This document shows positions 450 through 12,681 of a stretch of DNA of 41,644 nucleotides, piece by piece (the stretch's first letter is position 1; each line of letters starts with the position of its first letter). Origin of the DNA: Desulfobacterales bacterium (GTDB lineage: Bacteria; Desulfobacterota; Desulfobacteria; Desulfobacterales; UBA11574); assembly GCA_032126435.1 (NCBI GenBank), contig JAQBBE010000052.1:1-41644 (forward strand), read 5' to 3'. The position numbers and the translations under genes are program-made. The notes under the pieces are model-generated. The model ran no database searches. It saw only the letters and a list, made by a program, of their open reading frames with translations, and had not been told where the DNA came from.

Positions 450-591
450 TGCCACATTTTCCTTATGATAAGACATCCGGAACTGTGTTGTAATGCACAC
501 AACCACTTGTCGGTTTTAAGTGTAGCTTCAATAACGTCTGGGAAATTCAATAATTTATTTAAAATAAAGGTATTTTTTAGGCTTATATTTT

Positions 592-761
592 TAACTCGGA
601 CATGGAATAATAGAATGATGGAATGATGATTTAAAAAAGATGACATTCCTCTATTTAATTCCCGTCAAGAAGAATTTTACAATAACCCAACTTTCCATTT
701 TGCCATAACCCAATATTCCAGTGTTCCAATATTCCAATTGTGAGCGAAGCGAACTAAGTTC
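592..761 (+). repeat. Octamer-armed intergenic repeat element, family A, divergent copy A1
   Basis: TGGAATAA-TAGAATGA-TGGAATGA array at 603-626, inverse CCAATATT/TTCCA array at ~709-738, 3' end GCGAAGC (744-750) then CTAAGTTC; same layout and terminus as copy A2. Confidence 0.7.
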
Positions 762-3933: not shown

Positions 3934-4920
3934 ATGACAACGGATATTTCTATTGTAATTCCGGTATTCAACGAAGAAGACAATCTTAAAGAGCTTCTGG
4001 ATCGATGCCTCGATGCCTGTAACAAGATGGATAAGTCATTCGAAATCATCCTGGTTGATGACGGGAGCTCTGACCGGTCGGCGGAAATCATCGCCCGGAC
4101 GGCCCGAGAAAATCCAGGAAAGGTAATCGGTGTATGTTTAAACCGTAATTACGGCCAACACGCGGCGGTAATGGCCGGATTTAAAGAGTCCAGGGGTGAT
4201 ATTGTTGTTACGCTTGATGCTGACCTGCAGAACCCGCCCGAGGAAATACCAAGGCTGGTCGAATGTGTGGACAAAGGTTGCGACGTGGTGGGAAGCGTAC
4301 GAATGAATAGAAAGGATACCCTCTTTAGAAGGATAGCTTCTGCCATTATTAACAAAGCGGTACAGAAATCGACGGGTGTGATGATGCATGACTATGGCTG
4401 CATGTTACGGGCCTATCGCCGTCATATTGTTGATGCTATGCTGATGTGCAAGGAGCATAGCACGTTTATTCCGATTCTTGCCAATAGTTTTGCCCGTACC
4501 ACCACAGAAATAGAAGTAAAACATGAAGCGCGCAGACAGGGGGAATCGAAATACAATTTTATGAAGCTCGTGATGCTGCAATTCGATCTGTTAACCAGTA
4601 TGACAACCTTTCCACTTCGTCTTCTTAGTATACTTGGAGGAATTGTCTCTTTAGCAGGAATCGGTTTTGGTTTTTTCCTTTTAATCATGCGTGTCATTTA
4701 CGGAGCCAAATGGGCGGCTGAAGGTGTTTTTACGCTTTTTGCGATATTATTTATTTTTGTAGGTGCTCAGTTTATCGGAATGGGACTGCTTGGGGAATAT
4801 ATAGGCAGAATTTACTATGATGTCAGAGCCCGTCCCCGTTACTTTGTGCAACGGGTTACCGGCAAAAGCAACTTTGAGTCAAAAAAAACTTACCCGGATA
4901 ACCAGAACTCCGGCCGGTAA
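3934..4920 (+). CDS. arnC: Undecaprenyl-phosphate 4-deoxy-4-formamido-L-arabinose transferase (GT2)
   Basis: [35 protein letters not shown], two C-terminal TM helices. Confidence 0.95.
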
Positions 4921-4940
4921 GTCTTTGACCGGAAAATCAT

Positions 4941-5139
4941 TAAACGTCTCTGAAATTCTACAACTTCTCGAAATAACGAGTCTTTTAATGGTAATCTGTT
5001 TATGCCATCAGAATGGAATATTGGAATATTGGAATCAGGGCGGAAATAAAACCATTTTAATTGTAAAAAACTCCTTCAAACCCATCATTCCATTACTCCA
5101 TCATTCCATTATTCCAATTAGGGCGAAGCCCCTAAGTTC
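4941..5139 (+). repeat. Octamer-armed intergenic repeat element, family A, copy A2
   Basis: Starts TAAACGTCTC, ends GGGCGAAGCCC-CTAAGTTC; 5037-5119 equals the reverse complement of 11077-11158 except one A indel. Confidence 0.9.
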
Positions 5140-5180
5140 AAATCATCCGCCATCAAGGCGCAGACACACAAAGGATAACA

Positions 5181-7187
5181 ATGAAAGCGATCGTATTGGC
5201 ATACCACAACATCGGTTGTATCGGAATTGAAGCACTGCTTAAAAACGGATATGAAATTGCGGCAGTTTTTACACATAATGACAACCCAAATGAAAATATC
5301 TGGTTTAACTCGGTGGCCGAACTTGCTTCAGGTCATGGAATTCCGGTTTTCGCGCCCGAAGACATAAATCATCCTTTATGGATACAAAAAATTATTGAAT
5401 TAGATCCGGATATTCTTTTTTCATTTTACTACCGTAATATGGTCACTTCAGAAATCCTGGATATTCCTTCTTCAGGCTGTTTGAATCTGCACGGTTCTTT
5501 TTTGCCCAAATACCGCGGGCGATGCCCCATCAACTGGGTGCTGGTCAACGGGGAGACCGAAACCGGAATAACCCTTCATTACATGACTCCTCGGGCCGAT
5601 GACGGCGATATTGTATGTCAGAAAAAGATTGCGATATCCGATACGGATAACGCACACACACTTCATGAAAAAGCCGCAAAGACTGCAACCGATGTATTAA
5701 ACGAAATTCTACCGAAGTTACGGGAAGGAACGGCTCCCCGCATTCCTCAGGATCATTCTAAGGCTTCTTATTTTGGAGCCCGCAGTGCCAAGGACGGTGA
5801 AATCGACTGGAATCAAGATGCCGTTGCAATAAGGAATCTGGTGCGGGCGGTATCCCGGCCCTATCCCGGGGCTTCCAGCTATTTGGGTAACCGAAAATGT
5901 ATATTCTGGTCCGTTAGCGCGGCAAAAGGAAACAGCGAAAGGCCGGGTACTATTCTTTCTAAGGTTCCGTTAGTGATTGCCTGCGGCAAAGGAGCCATAC
6001 AGGTTGATTTTGGCCAGTTCGAAGGTGGGATATTCATGAGCGGCTTACAGCTTGCTGAAGAAATGCACCTTGTTGCGGGCATGAAATTTGGCAAACATAA
6101 AGGGAGCCGGGTTGAAACGGCAAGAAAAAAACAGGTGCTTATCCTTGGGGTTGACGGATTCATAGGCAACCATCTTACTGAACGGCTTTTAGATAGTGGA
6201 AAATATGAAGTTCACGGTATGGACTTAGGGGCACATTCCATTCAGCGTTTCGTGGGCGTTCCGGGGTTCCATTTTTCCGAAGGGGATATTTCCATCCATC
6301 GTGAATGGATAGAATATCATGTAAGAAAGTGCGATATAGTTCTTCCTCTTGTTGCCATTGCAACACCTGTTGAATACATCCGTAACCCTTTGAAGGTATT
6401 CGAACTCGATTTTGAAGAAAACCTCCACATTGTCCGCTACTGTGTCAAATACGGCAAAAGAATACTGTTCCCTTCTACCTCGGAAGTATATGGAATGTGC
6501 CATGATCCGAAATTCAATGAAGAAAACTCTCAATTAGTATTGGGACCCATCCGAAACCAGCGCTGGATTTATTCCTGCTGCAAGCAATTACTTGACAGGG
6601 TCATCTGGGCCTACGGCGCAAAAGAGGGTTTGCAGTTTACTCTGTTCAGGCCTTTTAACTGGATCGGCCCACGGCTTGACAGCCTGGCATCCGCCCGCAT
6701 CGGTAGTTCTCGTGCTATTACCCAGTTGATTTTAAATCTTACCGATGGGACTCCGATCCAGCTCGTTGACGGCGGCAGCCAAAAACGATGTTTTACTGAT
6801 GTAAAAGATGGTGTTGAATGTCTGTACAGGATTATTGAAAACCCGAACGGTTGTTGCGACGGCAAGATTATCAACATCGGAAATCCAGACAATGAAGCGA
6901 GCATCAAGGACCTGGCCGACATGCTAGTGGAAAAATTTCATCAACATCCTTTGTGCAAAGAATTCCCTCCCTTTGCAGGTATCAGCAAGGTGGAAAGCAA
7001 AACTTTTTACGGGTCAGGTTATGAGGATGTAAAACACAGAAAACCTTGTATCGATAATGCCCGACGTCTTTTAAACTGGGAACCCAAGATTAATATCGAG
7101 CAATCGGTTGAAGAAACCCTTGATTTCTTTCTAAAAGAAGCGATCCGGACGGGAGAATGCGGCACCACCCGACCCTGTGACGTGTAG
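5181..7187 (+). CDS. arnA: Bifunctional UDP-glucuronate decarboxylase / UDP-L-Ara4N formyltransferase
   Basis: N-terminal formyltransferase ([18 protein letters not shown]) plus C-terminal SDR ([22 protein letters not shown]); AAGGA RBS. Confidence 0.97.
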
Positions 7188-7263
7188 TTAAAACGATGAT
7201 CAAAAATTTGGCAAAGCAATATCTTAAACTCGATTCCCGGAACCCGGATAAACCGGAAAAAAA

Positions 7264-7466
7264 CAAATTACAAACAAATCGCAATAGCCGAAATTCAAAA
7301 TTCGAAACCTTATGATCTTGAAGAAAGTAAACGAATTGAAAAAGATATCTTCATCAATACCGGAAAAATCGAAATAGTTTAGGTCATTGGTATTTGGAAT
7401 TTGAGATTTGTTTGTAATTTGATGCTTGTGATTTGGGATTTATTTGTAATTTGGTGCTTGGAATTT
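7264..7466 (+). repeat. Heptamer-armed cassette, family B, copy B1
   Basis: Perfect 17-bp inverted repeat CAAATTACAAACAAATC (7264-7280) / GATTTGTTTGTAATTTG (7405-7421); degenerate ATTTGGN-type heptamer tandem running to the arnD ATG. Confidence 0.85.
7284..7377 (+). pseudogene. Internally deleted remnant of a probable four-helix-bundle (23S rRNA-IVP-like) gene
   Basis: 7284-7328 reads (ATA)AEIQNSKPYDLEES; after a frame change 7333-7377 reads ELKKISSSIPEKSK*; these resemble my recollection of the N- and C-termini of that family, not search-verified. Confidence 0.6.
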
Positions 7467-8360
7467 ATGAAGACAGGTTTACGTATTGACGTTGACACAT
7501 TCAGGGGCACCAAAATTGGTGTGCCGAATTTGTGCAGGATTCTTGCCGGTTACTCTATACGAGCATCATTCTTTTTTTCCGTTGGTCCGGATAATATGGG
7601 GCGTCACCTGTGGCGTCTGCTGCGCCCCTCTTTTTTTAAAAAAATGCTGCGCTCAAAAGCGGCAAGCTTGTATGGCTGGGATATTCTGCTTAAAGGGACT
7701 TTTCTTCCGGGGCCGGTTATCGGAAAAAGACTGGCCGATATAATACGTTCTGCCGCGAACCAGGGTCACGAAATCGGTTTGCACGCCTGGGATCATCACG
7801 CCTGGCAGGTCCACATCGACAGGATGGATCAGCAGTCCATAAGGCATCACCTTCGCAAAGGGGTTGATCAGCTTGCACCTATTCTCGGCAAGATTCCGGT
7901 TTGCTCGGCTTCCCCAGCATGGAAATGTAATAATCTTGTACTAATGGAAAAACAGAAATTCCCTTTTTTTTATAACAGTGATTGCAGGGGCGAAAGTATT
8001 TTTCTCCCATTGGTTGATGGGAAGAAACTCTCGCAACCCCAGATTCCCGTGACATTGCCTACCTATGATGAAGTAATCGGAAGAAAAGGAGTGTCGGATA
8101 GTAATTACAATGAATATATATTGTCGCTGATGAAACCGGAGAAATTGAATGTCCTGACTATTCATGCAGAAGTCGAGGGGATATTCTGTGCCGAAATGTT
8201 CGAACACTTTTTAAAGACAGCCCTGTCAAGAAAAATATCCTTTATCCCTCTGGGAACATTTCTACAGGAACAAATACCCACAGACTATGCTACCCTTGTG
8301 CCTGGAAAGATTCGCGGCCGAGAAGGATGGGTTGCATACCAGACACAAGATAATACTTGA
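7467..8360 (+). CDS. arnD: 4-deoxy-4-formamido-L-arabinose-phosphoundecaprenol deformylase
   Basis: MKTGLRIDVDTFRGT, SVGPDNMGRHLWRL, GLHAWDH, TIHAEVEG; the ORF-track extension 7401-7466 is repeat-derived. Confidence 0.95.
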   Translation: MKTGLRIDVDTFRGTKIGVPNLCRILAGYSIRASFFFSVGPDNMGRHLWRLLRPSFFKKMLRSKAASLYGWDILLKGTFLPGPVIGKRLADIIRSAANQGHEIGLHAWDHHAWQVHIDRMDQQSIRHHLRKGVDQLAPILGKIPVCSASPAWKCNNLVLMEKQKFPFFYNSDCRGESIFLPLVDGKKLSQPQIPVTLPTYDEVIGRKGVSDSNYNEYILSLMKPEKLNVLTIHAEVEGIFCAEMFEHFLKTALSRKISFIPLGTFLQEQIPTDYATLVPGKIRGREGWVAYQTQDNT

Positions 8361-8393
8361 TAAAATTCTGTATTAGATTTAAAATTGATGGCT

Positions 8394-8414
8394 TCGTAGA
8401 AAGTCTTTTGCGAG
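8394..8414 (+). repeat. Collapsed palindromic repeat, family C, copy 1
   Basis: TCGTAGAAAGTCTTTTGCGAG, 19/21 identical to the reverse complement of 38699-38719. Confidence 0.55.
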
Positions 8415-8457
8415 TGACTTTGACCATTTTGAGAAAATTCAAAGGTCCGTTTCTCAA

Positions 8458-8844
8458 CTAAACGACATTTGCTACAGGCTCGGTATGGATACAATATCAG
8501 TGGGAAATCTCTGTGGATTTACAATTTAAGAAAAAGGTTGATTTTAAGATAGAATACGGAGATGTGAATGCCATAGCCGGTTTGCTCAAAAAAATCGCAA
8601 CCAGGCAGGGCATTGGTAATATTCTGGCTCGGGGATTAGACATGCGGCCCAGATCTGGAACATGGAAGACATGGCTGTGCATGTTAAAGGACTTGAACTG
8701 CCCGGTTATGATCCCAGAGTTCTTAAGGGATGCGGGCTTGCCTTTGCCACCGCCGACAGTGGCGCATGCCATTTAAGGGCGCCGTTCCATAATCCTGAGA
8801 TAAAAGGCGTGATCGCCCCGGAGATTATCAAAAGGAAAGCCGAA
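8458..8844 (+). pseudogene. Aldehyde:ferredoxin oxidoreductase (AOR family) internal fragment, disrupted
   Basis: Three pieces broken by a stop and frameshifts: LNDICYRLGMDTISVGNLCGFTI*, IEYGDVNAIAGLLKKIATRQGIGNILARG, RHAAQIWNMEDMAVHVKGLELPGYDPRVLKGCGLAFATADSGACHLRA. Confidence 0.85.
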
Positions 8845-8964
8845 AATAAAATTTTAGAAAAAATTCTTTCTCAGAAAAAACCGTTGTGTCCCCACTACGG
8901 TAAGGAAATGAACATATGGGAGGTTCCCCCTTTTTCCTTCTGTGACGATCTCGGCTTGGGTAAA
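8845..8964 (+). pseudogene. Fragment of an unrelated small zinc-ribbon-like protein fused in frame to the AOR fragment
   Basis: KILEKILSQKKPLCPHYGKEMNIWEVPPFSFCDDLGLG; CPHY looks like a decayed CxxC; not AOR-like. Confidence 0.45.
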
Positions 8965-9118
8965 ATTTTCACGTTGACTTGGGGCGTCCATACTTCTCGC
9001 CGTTGTGGGCAGCTTGTCAGCTGTCCAATTCTGCTATCCTGCAGAATTGCCCTTGGCCTTGAACGAAATTGAGCATTTTTCAAGGTCTCAATGGTGCTGA
9101 AAAAAGGCTTGATACTCA

Positions 9119-9808
9119 ATGAGCACAACACACACTAAAACTTATAATTCATATCATTTTGGATCACCATCAAATATAGCCGACCAGCAACTGAAACAAC
9201 TCATTAGATTCTTTAATTTACCAAAAAATAGCGTTAATTCAGCCCTCGGCGGAAGAACCTCCATTACAGTTACACAGCTTAACGGCATAGGATCTGTAGT
9301 TATTAAATATTATAGACGGGGAGGAGTCATTCGATATCTGATCAAAAAACGGTATCTTAAATGTGGAAAAACGCGTTGCCAGATTGAATATGAACTGTTG
9401 CAGAAGGTCAGAAGTTTAGGCATAAATGCCCCTGAGCCGGTTGCCTTTGCTTATAGAGGCCGCCTGTTCTATCAATGTTGGCTGGTAACCCGAGAGATCC
9501 AAGATCATCAAACACTTGTCCAAATAAGTCGTTCAAATGAAGAACAGGCCCGTATGGCAATGAAAGCAGTCGTCAAGCAAGTTTCAATGCTCATAAAAAA
9601 TAAAATTTTACATGCCGATTTACATCCCGGCAATGTAATAGTGGACAATCAAAACCAAGTTTACATTCTTGATTTTGACAAGGGGTGTGTTTTTCACGGA
9701 GATAAAAATGCGCTGAGAACTCGATACCTGCGTCGCTGGAATCGGGCAATACAAAAGCATGGGCTACCGGAGATGCTTAGTGAAGTTAATGCGTTAAACT
9801 CTCTTTAA
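9119..9808 (+). CDS. Kdo kinase-like LPS kinase (Kdo/WaaP family)
   Basis: VIKYYRRGG, HADLHPGNVIV, ILDFDKG, KdkA-type motifs. Confidence 0.85.
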   Translation: MSTTHTKTYNSYHFGSPSNIADQQLKQLIRFFNLPKNSVNSALGGRTSITVTQLNGIGSVVIKYYRRGGVIRYLIKKRYLKCGKTRCQIEYELLQKVRSLGINAPEPVAFAYRGRLFYQCWLVTREIQDHQTLVQISRSNEEQARMAMKAVVKQVSMLIKNKILHADLHPGNVIVDNQNQVYILDFDKGCVFHGDKNALRTRYLRRWNRAIQKHGLPEMLSEVNALNSL

Positions 9809-9810
9809 CC

Positions 9811-9891
9811 ATTACAAATAGAAATGGTTTGGGTTATTGGTATTTGGAATTTACGATTTGTTTGGAATTTGATGCTTGAGATTTGGGATTT
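9811..9891 (+). repeat. Heptamer-armed cassette, family B, shorter copy B2
   Basis: 9821-9891 matches 7371-7441 at 64/71 positions; preceded by ATTACAAA, a stub of the B1 left arm. Confidence 0.85.
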
Positions 9892-9905
9892 CAAAAAATT
9901 CTTAA

Positions 9906-10979
9906 ATGTTTATTAGTTCCGTTATGGATACACCCACTTTTAAAATATTCTCTTCAGCACCATCAATCCTCATCATTCTGATGGGGTCTATAGGAGATGT
10001 GGCGCGAGGTCTGTGCCTGGTGTCACATATTAAAAACAATCTGCCGGGAAGCAGGGTAACATGGCTTGTAGAGCCAACGTGCTCGGAAGTGGTCTGTCTA
10101 CACCCACGCATTGACAAAATGATCGTTTTTAACAGACCCAGACATATGTTAGGAATACGAGATCTGTATAAAGACTTATCCCGAGAACACTTCGACATCA
10201 CTCTGGATCTTCAGCGTCACTTAAAGAGCGGCTTTTTCTCGTTTCTTTCCGGAGCGAAAAGACGAATCGGCTTTAATCGCCGTAATTCAGGGGAATTTAA
10301 CTGGATCTTTAATAACGAATACATCCCCTATGTCAGCGATGAGCTTGAGTTGCCCAAATTGCATCATTATCTTAAATTTACAGAATACCTGGGGTTATCT
10401 GAGCCCGCATCCTTGGACTTCGGTTTTTCCTGCCTTGATGAAAAATCTAATCTGCCGGATATTGTTGCTAAAATAAGTAAACCCTTTATCGCTGTTGTAA
10501 TGGGATCATCCTGGGAATCTAAAGACTGGTTCTTTGAAGGATACTATCGACTGGTAAAAAATATTCTTTCTTCAATGAAAGAGGCGGTTGTACTGCTTGG
10601 TGACGGCTCACAAGTATCATCTGCAACAAAACTGTGCCAAAAAGTTGGCTCACATGAATTAATCAATCTTGTGGGAAAAACGTCGATTCCTGAACTTGTG
10701 GCCGTGCTTAAAGCCGCTGCTGCCGGTTTAGGACCGGATTCGGGGCCGGGTCATTTGGCAGCAGCGGTGGGAACTCCCTATGTGTCTCTTTTCGGTCCAA
10801 CACCTCCGAAACGGGCAGCGCCTTATAAATGTGAACACCTTGTCGTTCAATCCGGGGTAAGCTGTGTTTCCTGTTATAAAAAGAAATGCCCTGACCTCGA
10901 CAGATTATGTATGCAGCGTATCAGCGTTGAATCGGTCCAGGAAAAACTTTCTATAGCACTTGGAACTGTTGGTGACTAA
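9906..10979 (+). CDS. Glycosyltransferase family 9 (LPS heptosyltransferase-like)
   Basis: MGSIGDV, TWLVE, LDLQ, DSGPGHLAAAVGTPYVSLFGPT, C-terminal Cys cluster; start may be 9924. Confidence 0.9.
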   Translation: MFISSVMDTPTFKIFSSAPSILIILMGSIGDVARGLCLVSHIKNNLPGSRVTWLVEPTCSEVVCLHPRIDKMIVFNRPRHMLGIRDLYKDLSREHFDITLDLQRHLKSGFFSFLSGAKRRIGFNRRNSGEFNWIFNNEYIPYVSDELELPKLHHYLKFTEYLGLSEPASLDFGFSCLDEKSNLPDIVAKISKPFIAVVMGSSWESKDWFFEGYYRLVKNILSSMKEAVVLLGDGSQVSSATKLCQKVGSHELINLVGKTSIPELVAVLKAAAAGLGPDSGPGHLAAAVGTPYVSLFGPTPPKRAAPYKCEHLVVQSGVSCVSCYKKKCPDLDRLCMQRISVESVQEKLSIALGTVGD

Positions 10980-11056
10980 CCATCTGTCTTCCCTTTTGGC
11001 TGTCGATCTCCTATTTCCAATCGCAGCATAAGATACAAAACAAAAAGCCAAATAAA

Positions 11057-11271
11057 AACTTAGGGCTCTTCGCCCCAATTGGAATAATGGAATGATGGAG
11101 TAATGGAATGATGGGTTTGAAGGAGTTTTTTACAATTAAAATGGTTTATTTCCGCCCTTGCTCCCAATATTCCAGCATTTCAATATTCCATTCTTCCATT
11201 TTGATGGCATAAACAGGTTGCTATTGATAAACTGGTATTTTCGATAAGTTGTAGAATTTTCGAGACGTTTA
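11057..11271 (-). repeat. Octamer-armed intergenic repeat element, family A, copy A3 (inverted relative to A2)
   Basis: Reverse complement runs TAAACGTCTC...GGGGCGAAGAGCCCTAAGTT; octamer array TGGAATAA TGGAATGA TGGAGTAA TGGAATGA at 11080-11111. Confidence 0.9.
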
Positions 11272-11273
11272 TA

Positions 11274-12431
11274 TTAGCCTGTATTTCTCTTTATAAGTCC
11301 TTGGAGCCGACTTTTAATGAAGGATTTAAAAGCAATATCGTTTTCTCCAAAGGAAATCTCTATCCCGATGATAACCAAGGTGATGGGCCATTTTATTTTA
11401 TGAGCAATCCGGACATAATCTTTTTCTGTGGTAAAAATAAATTCTGCCGATAGATCCGTTGCTGATTTCACAATTTCATCAAGTTCTCTATCCGAATACG
11501 GGTGATGGTCCGGAAATCCTGAAAAATCTTCTATTTTACATTTAAAACTCTCAATTGTTCGGCGAAAATCATCATTGCTTGCTATCCCGGAAAAAGCAAA
11601 GACCCTCTTATTTCTAAAGATATCAAAATCGTACTTGGATGAAATAGTTGGCAGATCTCGTGATTGGGAACGGTTTCCGGTAACAATTTTATAAATATAT
11701 GGGGTATGAAATGAATGAAAAATCGGCGTTCTCGGAAAATGTTTTTTTATTTGATCCAAAGACGCCGGCTTCTCGATATTCGATCGGGTTAAAATCACAA
11801 CGTCTCCCCGCGACAACGCAGAAGCGGTTTCTCTTAGGGTGCCCCTAGGGAAAAGATAAGTATTGCCCAACGGGTTATTACTGTCTAAAAGCACCAGGTC
11901 TAAATCTCGATGGAGCTTTAAATGTTGAAATGCATCATCAAGCAGTAAAACATCCGGTTTAAATTCCTGTATCGCCAATATTCCGGCCTTAAAACGGTCT
12001 TTCCCAACAATAACAGGAACCGTTTTTAGTCTCTGGGCAACCATAAATGGCTCATCGCCTGCTGTATCCGGCCCCATACAAATTTTACGCCCGTCACATA
12101 CCACGCCACCAATTTTCTCTGCTTGGCCTTTATATCCCCTGCTGATAATTGCAACACCATACCCGAGATGCTTAATTAGCTCCGCGACATAAATCGTCAT
12201 AGGTGTTTTCCCCGACCCGCCAACCGTAAGGTTACCAATGGAAATAACCGGGCAAGGTAGTCTTTTTGACTGCAACAGACCTTTTTTGTAAAAAGTTTCC
12301 CTCAGCTTAACCGAACCGCCATAAGCAATTGATATTGCGAAGAGAAAGGATTCGAGGAACAGGGACCTGCTTTCGCCCCTATTAGTCATAATCGTTTCGA
12401 CTTTTTTCTTAACGTTTTCCAGAGTCGCCAT
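11274..12431 (-). CDS. lpxK: Tetraacyldisaccharide 4'-kinase
   Basis: SIGNLTVGGSGKTP, SRGY, GDEP, LDDAFQH, FPDHH, TTEKD; ATG at 12431 chosen. Confidence 0.96.
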   Translation of the reverse strand: MATLENVKKKVETIMTNRGESRSLFLESFLFAISIAYGGSVKLRETFYKKGLLQSKRLPCPVISIGNLTVGGSGKTPMTIYVAELIKHLGYGVAIISRGYKGQAEKIGGVVCDGRKICMGPDTAGDEPFMVAQRLKTVPVIVGKDRFKAGILAIQEFKPDVLLLDDAFQHLKLHRDLDLVLLDSNNPLGNTYLFPRGTLRETASALSRGDVVILTRSNIEKPASLDQIKKHFPRTPIFHSFHTPYIYKIVTGNRSQSRDLPTISSKYDFDIFRNKRVFAFSGIASNDDFRRTIESFKCKIEDFSGFPDHHPYSDRELDEIVKSATDLSAEFIFTTEKDYVRIAHKIKWPITLVIIGIEISFGENDIAFKSFIKSRLQGLIKRNTG

Positions 12432-12681
12432 TAATTTATCTCTATCTAACCCGAACACAAAAATTACCCTTTCATTGCCCGTAAAGAGCAAAACAACCGG
12501 CAACAAACTATATTAAGATGTTACTTTTCTATCACATATAATGTCTCCTATCAAGGAGGTATAAAACCAAAATCCGCCGCCTAATTTTTAATCAAGTCGT
12601 TTTATGCTACACAGAGTTTTTTTGAATAAACCAATAGAAAAGAAGGTAAAATCCTTGGTGGCAATCCCTCCAAAATAGCGC

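Follow-up and report, generated by a model that had tools for sequence, protein, structure and literature searches.

Gene-less repeats with two unlike ends in an uncultured Desulfobacterales bacterium, probably miniature relatives of IS91-family insertion sequences

Insertion sequences (IS) of the IS91 family move a single strand by a rolling-circle mechanism, using a Y2 transposase of the HUH type. They insert without target site duplication (TSD), with a target tetranucleotide beside the end called oriIS, and their gene reads from the other end, terIS, towards oriIS (PMC13181058, PMC3189936). In the accounts that these sources give of the ends, terIS carries a single GC-rich palindrome in a subterminal position, next to the cleavage site GTTC or CTCG (CTCG in IS91), and the left end opens with the tetranucleotide, after which comes a GC-rich stem-loop (PMC13181058, PMC3189936). 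Derivatives without a gene are described there as mobilisable in trans, and miniature derivatives of IS801, 229-679 nt long, as transposing in vivo (PMC3189936). For the IS200/IS605 family, the cited account names a flanking target-adjacent motif (TAM), an element-encoded transposon-encoded motif (TEM) and scarless donor joints (PMC10055086). Here we compare with these systems two repeats of about 200 nt, copies A and B, which lie on a contig of an uncultured member of the Desulfobacterales (JAQBBE010000052.1, positions 1 to 41,644, below C52; assembly GCA_032126435.1; genome of 2.74 Mb in 329 contigs, 95% complete, 46% G+C). We call the whole contig of 41,644 nt the window. At a rough probability of 60%, we consider both copies to be transposase-less miniatures of an IS91-family insertion sequence, a reading that is drawn from sequence comparison. 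In the following, G000 is the genome of the window, other G-numbers are relatives or sampled genomes, L-numbers are loci and X-numbers are public runs.

The likeness to IS91, IS801 and IS1294 has four parts. The ends are unlike each other, with neither a terminal inverted repeat (TIR) nor a TSD. One end has a single GC-rich subterminal palindrome beside a tetranucleotide of the GTTC/CTTG type, that is, GGGGCGAAGCCCC or a GCGAAGC core, then TAA, then GTTC or CTTG. A fixed sequence preference adjoins the other end. Finally, between the ends of longer copies there are fragments of a Y2_Tnp gene that read from the palindrome end to the other end.

Copies A and B stand in opposite orientation, as the initial annotation of this DNA had said. 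The repeat arms are 5014-5128 with 11068-11182 (115 nt, 90% complementary) and 4941-5035 with 11177-11271 (95 nt, 83%). A shared core of 82-83 nt, described as identical but for one indel, is about right, and the longest identical run between the two copies has 71 nt. In the alignment of A with B, the 69 nt at the 5' end give 57 matches, 12 mismatches and 9 gap columns, compared with 120 matches, 5 mismatches and 11 gap columns in the remainder (Fisher p = 0.003). The inverted arrays of TGGAATnn and nnATTCCA units likewise exist as described, and folding gives the element a long imperfect stem. As to the boundaries, the first proposal came near to them; on the basis of family alignments and empty sites, however, the true ends are 4944 (ACGTCTC...) and 5139 (...CTAAGTTC) for A and 11269 and 11056 for B. 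The first four bases of the start proposed earlier, TAAACGTCTC, are largely target motif. Furthermore, the right boundary of copy A is marked by loose ends at 5139 in 3 public runs. The annotation had seen neither a TIR nor a target duplication, and we found none in alignments of copies or in two comparisons of filled with empty sites.

Both copies belong to a large family. A profile built from 11 copies gave 92 nhmmer matches in G000 (BLAST was also used), which reduce to 53 non-overlapping matches and to 47 merged loci, of which 31 have both ends, 2 have just the 5' end and 14 lack the 5' end. All loci are intergenic; none of the 53 non-overlapping matches lies in a credible gene, and two of them overlap a short called open reading frame (ORF). 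We detected the family in 23 of 24 genomes of the same bacterial family and, among 16 genomes that represent the order's other families, in 2, weakly in one of them. A 21-nt box of the 5' end, with up to 3 mismatches allowed, occurs 36, 43, 25, 9 and 12 times in five relatives and 0-1 times for the reversed control, which is far above chance. In its exact 20-nt form the box has at least 121 matches in metagenome contigs, and none in viral contigs. Eleven copies in relatives that have only the 5' end are decayed or deleted forms. The opposite case considered in the annotation, a static duplication confined to these copies and conserved at orthologous positions, does not hold: there are about 47 loci here and hundreds in relatives, and sites are filled in some genomes and empty in others. 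What stands is a multi-copy mobile element without TIR and without a gene of its own, non-autonomous and with sharp asymmetric ends; the family, the ends and the filled and empty sites support this part of the annotation.

Alignments of 11 and of 57 copies have the same two sharp ends. The 5' end begins with ACGTCTCGGAAATTCTACAAC and is conserved over ~70-95 nt. The 3' end consists of ...CCAATTG, a GC mini-hairpin around GCGAAGC (GGGGCGAAGCCCC or a second type, TGAGCGAAGCGAAC) and TAAGTTC or TAACTTG; DNA mini-hairpins of the GCGAAGC type are described in PMC13037366. In the terminus, C comes after AAGTT in 20 of 24 rows and G after AACTT in 11 of 14, a few of the rows being orthologous copies and so not independent. 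The variable bases 4 and 7 covary, and they do so across both hairpin types. The heptamer GCGAAGC as such is not enriched genome-wide (287 occurrences, ~257 expected).

Inside these ends, a centre separates a left TGGAATnn array from a right nnATTCCA array, and the whole element is a mosaic in which array units and nested modules are quickly gained and lost. The number of octamer units varies between copies; for example, in public contigs of the same locus the left array of copy A is longer by 8 nt (X3) or 16 nt (X1). Some copies have extra GC hairpin modules inserted near the 3' end, and deletion forms retain both ends with half an array or none. Minimal copies from metagenomes (L313, ~70 nt; L275, 112 nt) retain no more than the 3' terminus and ~35-40 nt of the 5' end, together with a small hairpin that is unrelated. 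Since these copies have exchanged the arrays for other small hairpins, the constant unit is the pair of ends and not the arrays.

This observation bears on the possibility that the repeats are octamer-array hairpins which spread by an array-linked mechanism, for example as cassettes around small four-helix-bundle genes, the ends and the Y2 fragments being secondary. Bare TGGAAT-array hairpins without these ends do occur, at 14 of the 47 loci in G000, and in G002 the array pattern is found 125 times forward and 132 times in reverse (control: 1 and 0) with only 36 occurrences of the 5' box. Other array families are present in the same window, and in two congeners the junction of the C144 site is taken by a different array hairpin (a CCGATTGn-array hairpin in G005 and G003, where four other genomes carry the family element). 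In addition, 4 of 6 matches to PF05635, the 23S rRNA intervening-sequence protein family, are bracketed in G000 by inverted octamer arrays of other sequence (genes or fragments at G000:C71:579-980, L171, L173 and L176). On the other hand, the minimal copies keep the ends and replace the arrays, every TGGAAT hairpin in G000 has a loop of at most 141 nt and no gene, and PF13366 has no match in G000. We found no gene bracketed by TGGAAT arrays in G000, and none among the matches listed in G002. The change of array length in 8-nt steps between near-identical strains fits slippage better than a signal of transposition. On balance we regard an array-linked spread as unlikely. An 89-aa frame in the metagenome copy L323 looked like a four-helix-bundle protein and was rejected, as Pfam gave no match. 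At C71, a bare TGGAAT hairpin lies just upstream of the PF05635 gene.

Among described tandem repeats, the GGGNATC repeats of Xanthomonas and Nostoc resemble the arrays in being intergenic tandem units of 7-8 nt that vary in number and often lie just after stop codons (PMC4692102). As far as the repeats are described there, ours differ by an inverted pair of arrays that is not G-rich, by fixed unique ends and by a defined insertion site. Cyanobacterial short tandemly repeated repetitive sequences (STRR), heptamer or octamer repeats without known function, share the same likenesses and differences.

Next, we consider where the elements insert. After 10 of 57 copies had been dropped because they had no anchor, the seven bases to the left of the remaining 47 are T30 A36 A36 T32 T42 W A39, and ACGTCTCG follows. 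A comparison with empty sites in relatives, as the annotation had advised, gave two clean cases. The copy on C267 is missing in G004 and G003, where the flanks are 95-97% identical. At their empty site ...AATAATTTA runs directly into TTTCATATC, and the filled site reads ...AATAATTTA, then ACGTCTC...CTAACTTG, then T(C/T)TCATATC, so the element lies exactly between the two halves of the empty site. The terminal CTTG of this copy is absent from the empty site, which means that the terminal tetranucleotide moves with the element. For copy B, a contig of the public run X5 (~98% identical) represents the empty allele: it joins 11046 to 11270 with 10 unrelated bases between them, directly after TAATATA, the word that holds the lpxK stop codon. 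The motif was present beforehand in both empty sites; together with the counts in the left flanks, this shows insertion 3' of an existing TAAT(T/A)(T/A)A, without duplication. For the copies on C249 and C22 our searches gave no clean empty site. Copy A is absent between arnC and arnA in the congeners searched (5 of 6). However, its site has ~69 nt (left) and 32 nt (right) of extra flank compared with the congeners, and the arn locus is only ~80% identical to theirs, so this absence is weak evidence of a recent jump and may come from a diverged or imported locus.

The annotation had pointed to stop codons shortly before both elements. Indeed, the ORF of the arnC-like gene ends at 4920 and the lpxK stop codon lies inside the target motif of copy B. 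Among the 33 copies of G000 that have a 5' end, 11 follow a co-oriented long open frame that ends within 14 nt. Closeness to stop codons is thus frequent and not universal, and since the target motif contains TAA, copies will often land on stop codons.

Positions at gene ends, including these 11 of 33, would also be expected of signals that serve the host, such as terminators, mRNA stabilisers, RNase III sites or small RNAs, which were duplicated and selected and are not mobile. The long stem agrees with such a role, and so does its better RNA fold on the complementary strand (-53 kcal/mol, z -2.7, compared with -38.6 and z -1.9); the contigs of one RNA library cover parts of the region, although such contigs cannot show transcription. 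Yet the elements occur in both orientations relative to tandem neighbouring genes in G000 (14 co-oriented, 9 opposed), no T run follows the hairpin, and the 5' part has no covariation. An Rfam scan of 4700-11500 gave no meaningful match, with best E-values of 0.28-0.47 and scores far under the gathering scores. Moreover, closely related strains differ in whether they have a given copy, and its site can be occupied by other elements instead. We therefore hold a host-serving, immobile signal to be very improbable. At the C132 junction, G004 and G006 carry an unrelated sequence of ~285 nt.

The annotation had proposed to look for longer versions with a gene for an HUH/Y2 transposase. This succeeded in part: three longer copies contain pieces of a Y2 gene of the IS91 family, whereas an intact gene-bearing element was not recovered. 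The clearest case is L323, one of 78 distinct metagenome instances of the 5' box. It has 911 nt and consists of the 5' end, the left array, a frame of 198 aa on the opposite strand, the right array and the 3' end; the frame matches PF04986 (Y2_Tnp) with E 4.9e-19 over profile positions 40-178 of 183. Two further loci are built alike around shorter pieces of this gene: L386 (79% identity over 38 aa), in the genome G175 of another family within the order, and L399, in G632 of the same bacterial family. Two loci of G632 match the protein at 84-85% over residues 215-330, and the layout is known for L399 only. The sequence at the start of the loop is common to L323 and L386, which fits stepwise deletion from one ancestor. 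In three independent sources, then, the fragments are antisense to the element, which fits what would be expected if the 5' end were oriIS and the 3' end terIS.

Full-length relatives of the fragment exist as well. We found 154 proteins at E <= 1e-10, of which the best have 413-418 aa with PF14319 and PF04986; they are up to 90% identical to the L323 fragment and are encoded mostly on metagenome contigs of 1.3-4.4 kb. Viral contigs gave no useful relative of the transposase. We infer that the two ends correspond to oriIS and terIS, that enzymes such as these full-length metagenome transposases mobilise the elements, and that the chemistry is of the single-strand type.

According to this model, an element would read, from 5' to 3', as follows: the flanking TAAT(T/A)(T/A)A; the conserved end ACGTCTCGGAAATTCTACAAC... 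of ~70-95 nt as the oriIS side; the left TGGAATnn array; a loop from which the transposase gene, read on the other strand, would have been deleted; the right nnATTCCA array; the GC mini-hairpin around GCGAAGC; and the terminus TAA-GTTC or TAA-CTTG as the terIS side. A transposase acting in trans would nick at two places, behind the target motif and behind the terminal tetranucleotide, and one strand would be moved and then joined 3' of a new TAATTWA site without target duplication. As G000 yielded no cognate transposase gene, its copies are probably no longer mobile.

Several observations weigh against an IS91-type origin. The flank beside the proposed oriIS is a 7-nt A/T-rich TAATTWA and not the CTTG/GTTC tetranucleotide of the IS91 family. 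The 5' end, proposed as the oriIS side, has no supported palindrome: RNAalifold predicts 0 pairs, and two hairpins drawn by hand pair in 65.1% of cells compared with 63.7% in shuffled alignments (55 of 500 shuffles as high), without covariation. The left octamer array could serve as the palindrome of oriIS only by pairing with the right array. We found no Y2 gene in G000, G002, G015 and G011, though G002 has 36 of the 5' boxes. No intact element with a full transposase between both ends was recovered: among 401 genomes of the order and 401 of the phylum that were sampled, no match passed the E cut-offs of 1e-70 and 1e-18, and in 52 genomes of the bacterial family there was nothing beyond transposase fragments or a piece limited by its contig. 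The locus L333 has its portion of the same transposase (residues 290-404, 72% identical) outside the hairpin, where it is oriented like the 3' end, opposite to the other three sources. In L398 (G620:C975) a family copy has inserted into an IS91-like transposase gene, at a TAATTAA within the coding sequence, so that adjacency of element and gene can also come from insertion. Distant IS91-like elements of the same bacterial family have ends dissimilar to those described here, the boundaries of those elements being undefined. In a search for cargo-bearing versions in relatives, no pairs of 5' and 3' ends more than ~380 nt apart were found in G002, G013, G019, G015 and G022 with a 3' pattern that matched the second end type only.

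There are also differences in kind. The miniature IS801 derivatives, as they are described in the source cited above, are one-ended products, whereas the elements here retain both ends and have lost the middle. Dozens of copies per genome across a whole bacterial family, and inverted octamer arrays inside the ends, set them further apart from IS91, and an intact parent element was not recovered.

Potentially, another enzyme moves the elements, a Y1 HUH transposase acting in the manner of IS200/IS605 with its palindrome-associated transposable elements (PATE), or in that of repetitive extragenic palindromes (REP) and their REP-associated tyrosine transposases (RAYT); the Y2 fragments would then be incidental passengers or insertion targets. 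Insertion 3' of a short fixed motif without TSD or TIR, together with a 3' subterminal hairpin, corresponds to the IS200/IS605 layout as given in PMC10055086. The scarless empty sites and the conserved motif that forms the 3' terminus are further likenesses to this peel-and-paste system, whose gene-less copies are mobilised in trans. The flanking motif resembles the 3' terminus (TAA-T-T-W-A and TAA-S-T-T-S), the locus L398 shows that elements insert into a Y2 gene, and G000 has one gene for a RAYT-like Y1 protein (351 aa; PF01797, E 3.8e-11; NF047646, 63.8 bits, under the 80-bit cut-off of the model). However, IS200/IS605 TnpA binds hairpins at both ends, and here only the 3' hairpin is supported. 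Neither a canonical small TnpA nor a TnpB-type domain was found in G000 (PF07282, no match), and what three longer copies hold at the same internal position and in the same orientation are remnants of a Y2 and not of a Y1 gene. The RAYT-like gene occurs in 33 of 41 related genomes, some of which are free of the element (the complete genome G011, for example), and none of 14 scanned Y1-gene loci carries an element within ~1.5 kb, three of them having a lone GCGAAGC without the terminus. Overall, we think it improbable that a Y1 enzyme mobilises the family. The RAYT-like gene itself was rejected as a partner, being order-wide, found also in element-free genomes and flanked by neither the element nor its hairpin.

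With REP, with the bacterial interspersed mosaic elements (BIME) and with the REP doublets that form hairpins (REPIN), the family shares a high copy number, intergenic positions, hairpins, mosaic or nested modules, both orientations and a single RAYT-like gene in the genome. The units differ, being ~200 nt long with two unlike ends and not a tagged palindrome of 20-40 nt, and the RAYT-like gene is not flanked by these repeats. Membership in the CGTC-tagged REPs was also rejected: CGTC does stand at the 5' end here, but the 8-9-bp stem that adjoins the tag in the REPs described in PMC3733652 is missing. The RAYT-like Y1 protein also weakly resembles (E ~1e-5) DnaA models in their C-terminal part, and upstream of its gene, on G000:C129 (L031 1060-1200), there are tandem arrays of GTAACCCn, GATAACCn and TTTTCACn units.

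If the elements are indeed IS91-type miniatures, they might even define an undescribed IS91 subgroup, with a 7-nt A/T-rich target word that contains TAA and with ends that include inverted tandem-octamer arrays; we offer this as a tentative suggestion, and hold it rather doubtful. At least a part of the octamer-array hairpin repeats would then be footprints of rolling-circle transposons, and how they spread would become open to test. Gene-less elements of the IS91 type that occur naturally and in high copy number would be the bacterial equivalent of eukaryotic non-autonomous Helitrons; in print, our literature search turned up only experimental or one-ended miniatures of IS801 and IS91. For annotation, the result explains a large share of the puzzling intergenic repeats and contig breaks in these genomes of sediment sulfate reducers, and it cautions against taking the elements as regulators of the arn and lpx genes of lipid A. 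Since the ends, the target word and candidate transposases (those up to 90% identical to the L323 fragment) are now defined, the mechanism can be tested directly.

The annotation had called the elements recently active, and here the findings are divided. A strain ~98% identical lacks copy B, and the array of copy A differs by 8 or 16 nt between public samples. On the other hand, the copies are mostly 68-88% identical to each other (94% in the best pair seen), several occupy orthologous sites, and no cognate transposase gene was found. Copies at orthologous sites in other species of the genus are those on C109, C213, C313, C24 and C22, and polymorphic ones are copy B and the copy on C267. The family is old and was active over a long time, and it is probably stranded now in G000.

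It had also been suggested that the inverted pair could invert the block between the copies. Judged by their shared identical run of 71 nt, inverted copies A and B could in principle recombine. Congeners keep arnC and arnA co-oriented. The public contigs break inside the core shared by A and B, and the block 5140-11056 is thus unphased by them. The only joint of opposite strands, from 5078 to 11168 in run X3 (depth 4.7), repeats the centre rather than continuing into the 3' end; we read it as another copy of the family, with the wrong geometry for an inversion junction. An inversion of 5140-11056 is neither shown nor excluded, and no data support a flip or a regulation of lipid A genes.

Coordinates of the copies, their parts and their neighbours are collected in Table 1.

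Table 1. Features of the window discussed in the text (LE, left end; GT, glycosyltransferase; nt positions on the window).
Feature	Position	Strand	Remarks
Third copy	534..761	+	More diverged; second 3'-end type TGAGCGAAGCGAACTAAGTTC; nhmmer match 533-758, profile positions 3-204, score 61
GT2 (arnC-like) gene	3934-4920		Before copy A
Copy A, target motif TCATTAA	4937..4943	+	Flanking DNA, outside the element; family consensus TAATTWA
Copy A, miniature element	4944..5139	+	196 nt; between arnC-like gene and arnA
Copy A, 5' end (LE)	4944..5013	+	Conserved box ACGTCTCTGAAATTCTACAAC and ~50 nt; from family alignments; proposed oriIS-side end
Copy A, left octamer array	5014..5035	+	TGGAATAT TGGAATAT TGGAAT
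Copy A, centre	5036..5083	+	Loop of long hairpin; same position in longer relatives holds Y2 transposase gene fragments
Copy A, right octamer array	5084..5119	+	ATCATTCC ATTACTCC ATCATTCC ATTATTCC AATT
Copy A, subterminal GC mini-hairpin	5121..5131	+	GGGC-GAA-GCCC
Copy A, 3' terminus	5132..5139	+	CTAAGTTC; proposed terIS cleavage tetranucleotide GTTC at 5136-5139
arnA	5181-7187		After copy A
Bare inverted octamer-array hairpin, second, unrelated family	7264..7473		CAAATTAC.../...GTAATTTG type, without conserved ends; abuts deacetylase gene start
Partial copy (one arm) of second hairpin family	9816..9891	+	89% identical to 7366-7441; between Kdo-kinase-like and GT9 genes
GT9 gene	9906-10979		Neighbour of copy B
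Copy B	11056..11269	-	214 nt; between GT9 gene and lpxK
Copy B, terminus	11063-11056	-	CTAAGTTT
Copy B, hairpin	11076-11063	-	
Copy B, right array	11115-11077	-	
Copy B, centre	~11162-11116	-	
Copy B, left array	~11199-11163	-	
Copy B, LE	11269-11200	-	
Copy B, target motif TAATATA	11270..11276	-	Includes lpxK stop codon (11274-11276)
lpxK	11274-12506	-	Other neighbour of copy B

The nearest matches of the ArnA protein of the window are proteins of uncultured Desulfobacterales. The arn locus (3934-8360, arnC, arnA and deacetylase) has 73-80% DNA identity to congeners, compared with 86-99% for five other loci, which suggests that it was imported or is unusually diverged. Synteny with the congeners ends after the deacetylase gene (window 8361-11056). 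In this part there is a fragment of an aldehyde ferredoxin oxidoreductase gene at 8461-9072, which covers only positions 198-243 of the 385 of the PF01314 profile. The Kdo-kinase-like and GT9 genes have no nucleotide match in five congeners, and lpxK is located elsewhere in those congeners.

The hairpin of the second family fills the gap between arnA and the deacetylase gene, which measures 299 nt here and 43 nt in G004. It comes within ~15 nt of the longest deacetylase ORF, whose start is uncertain, and copies 89-91% identical to it occur elsewhere in G004 and G006. We also see a GC-rich element of 110 nt that sits within the loop of a hairpin module, itself part of a family copy (G000:C144:1379-1489, L012/L217). 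G000 and G006 have this nested element, whereas G004 and G002 do not; with at least 9 copies that are 94-98% identical in G001, it looks recently active. Another repeated hairpin with a GCGAAGC loop (CCCC...GAAATGCGAAGCATATTT...GGGG) occurs in at least 5 places in G000, on C120, C193, C205, C267 and C301.

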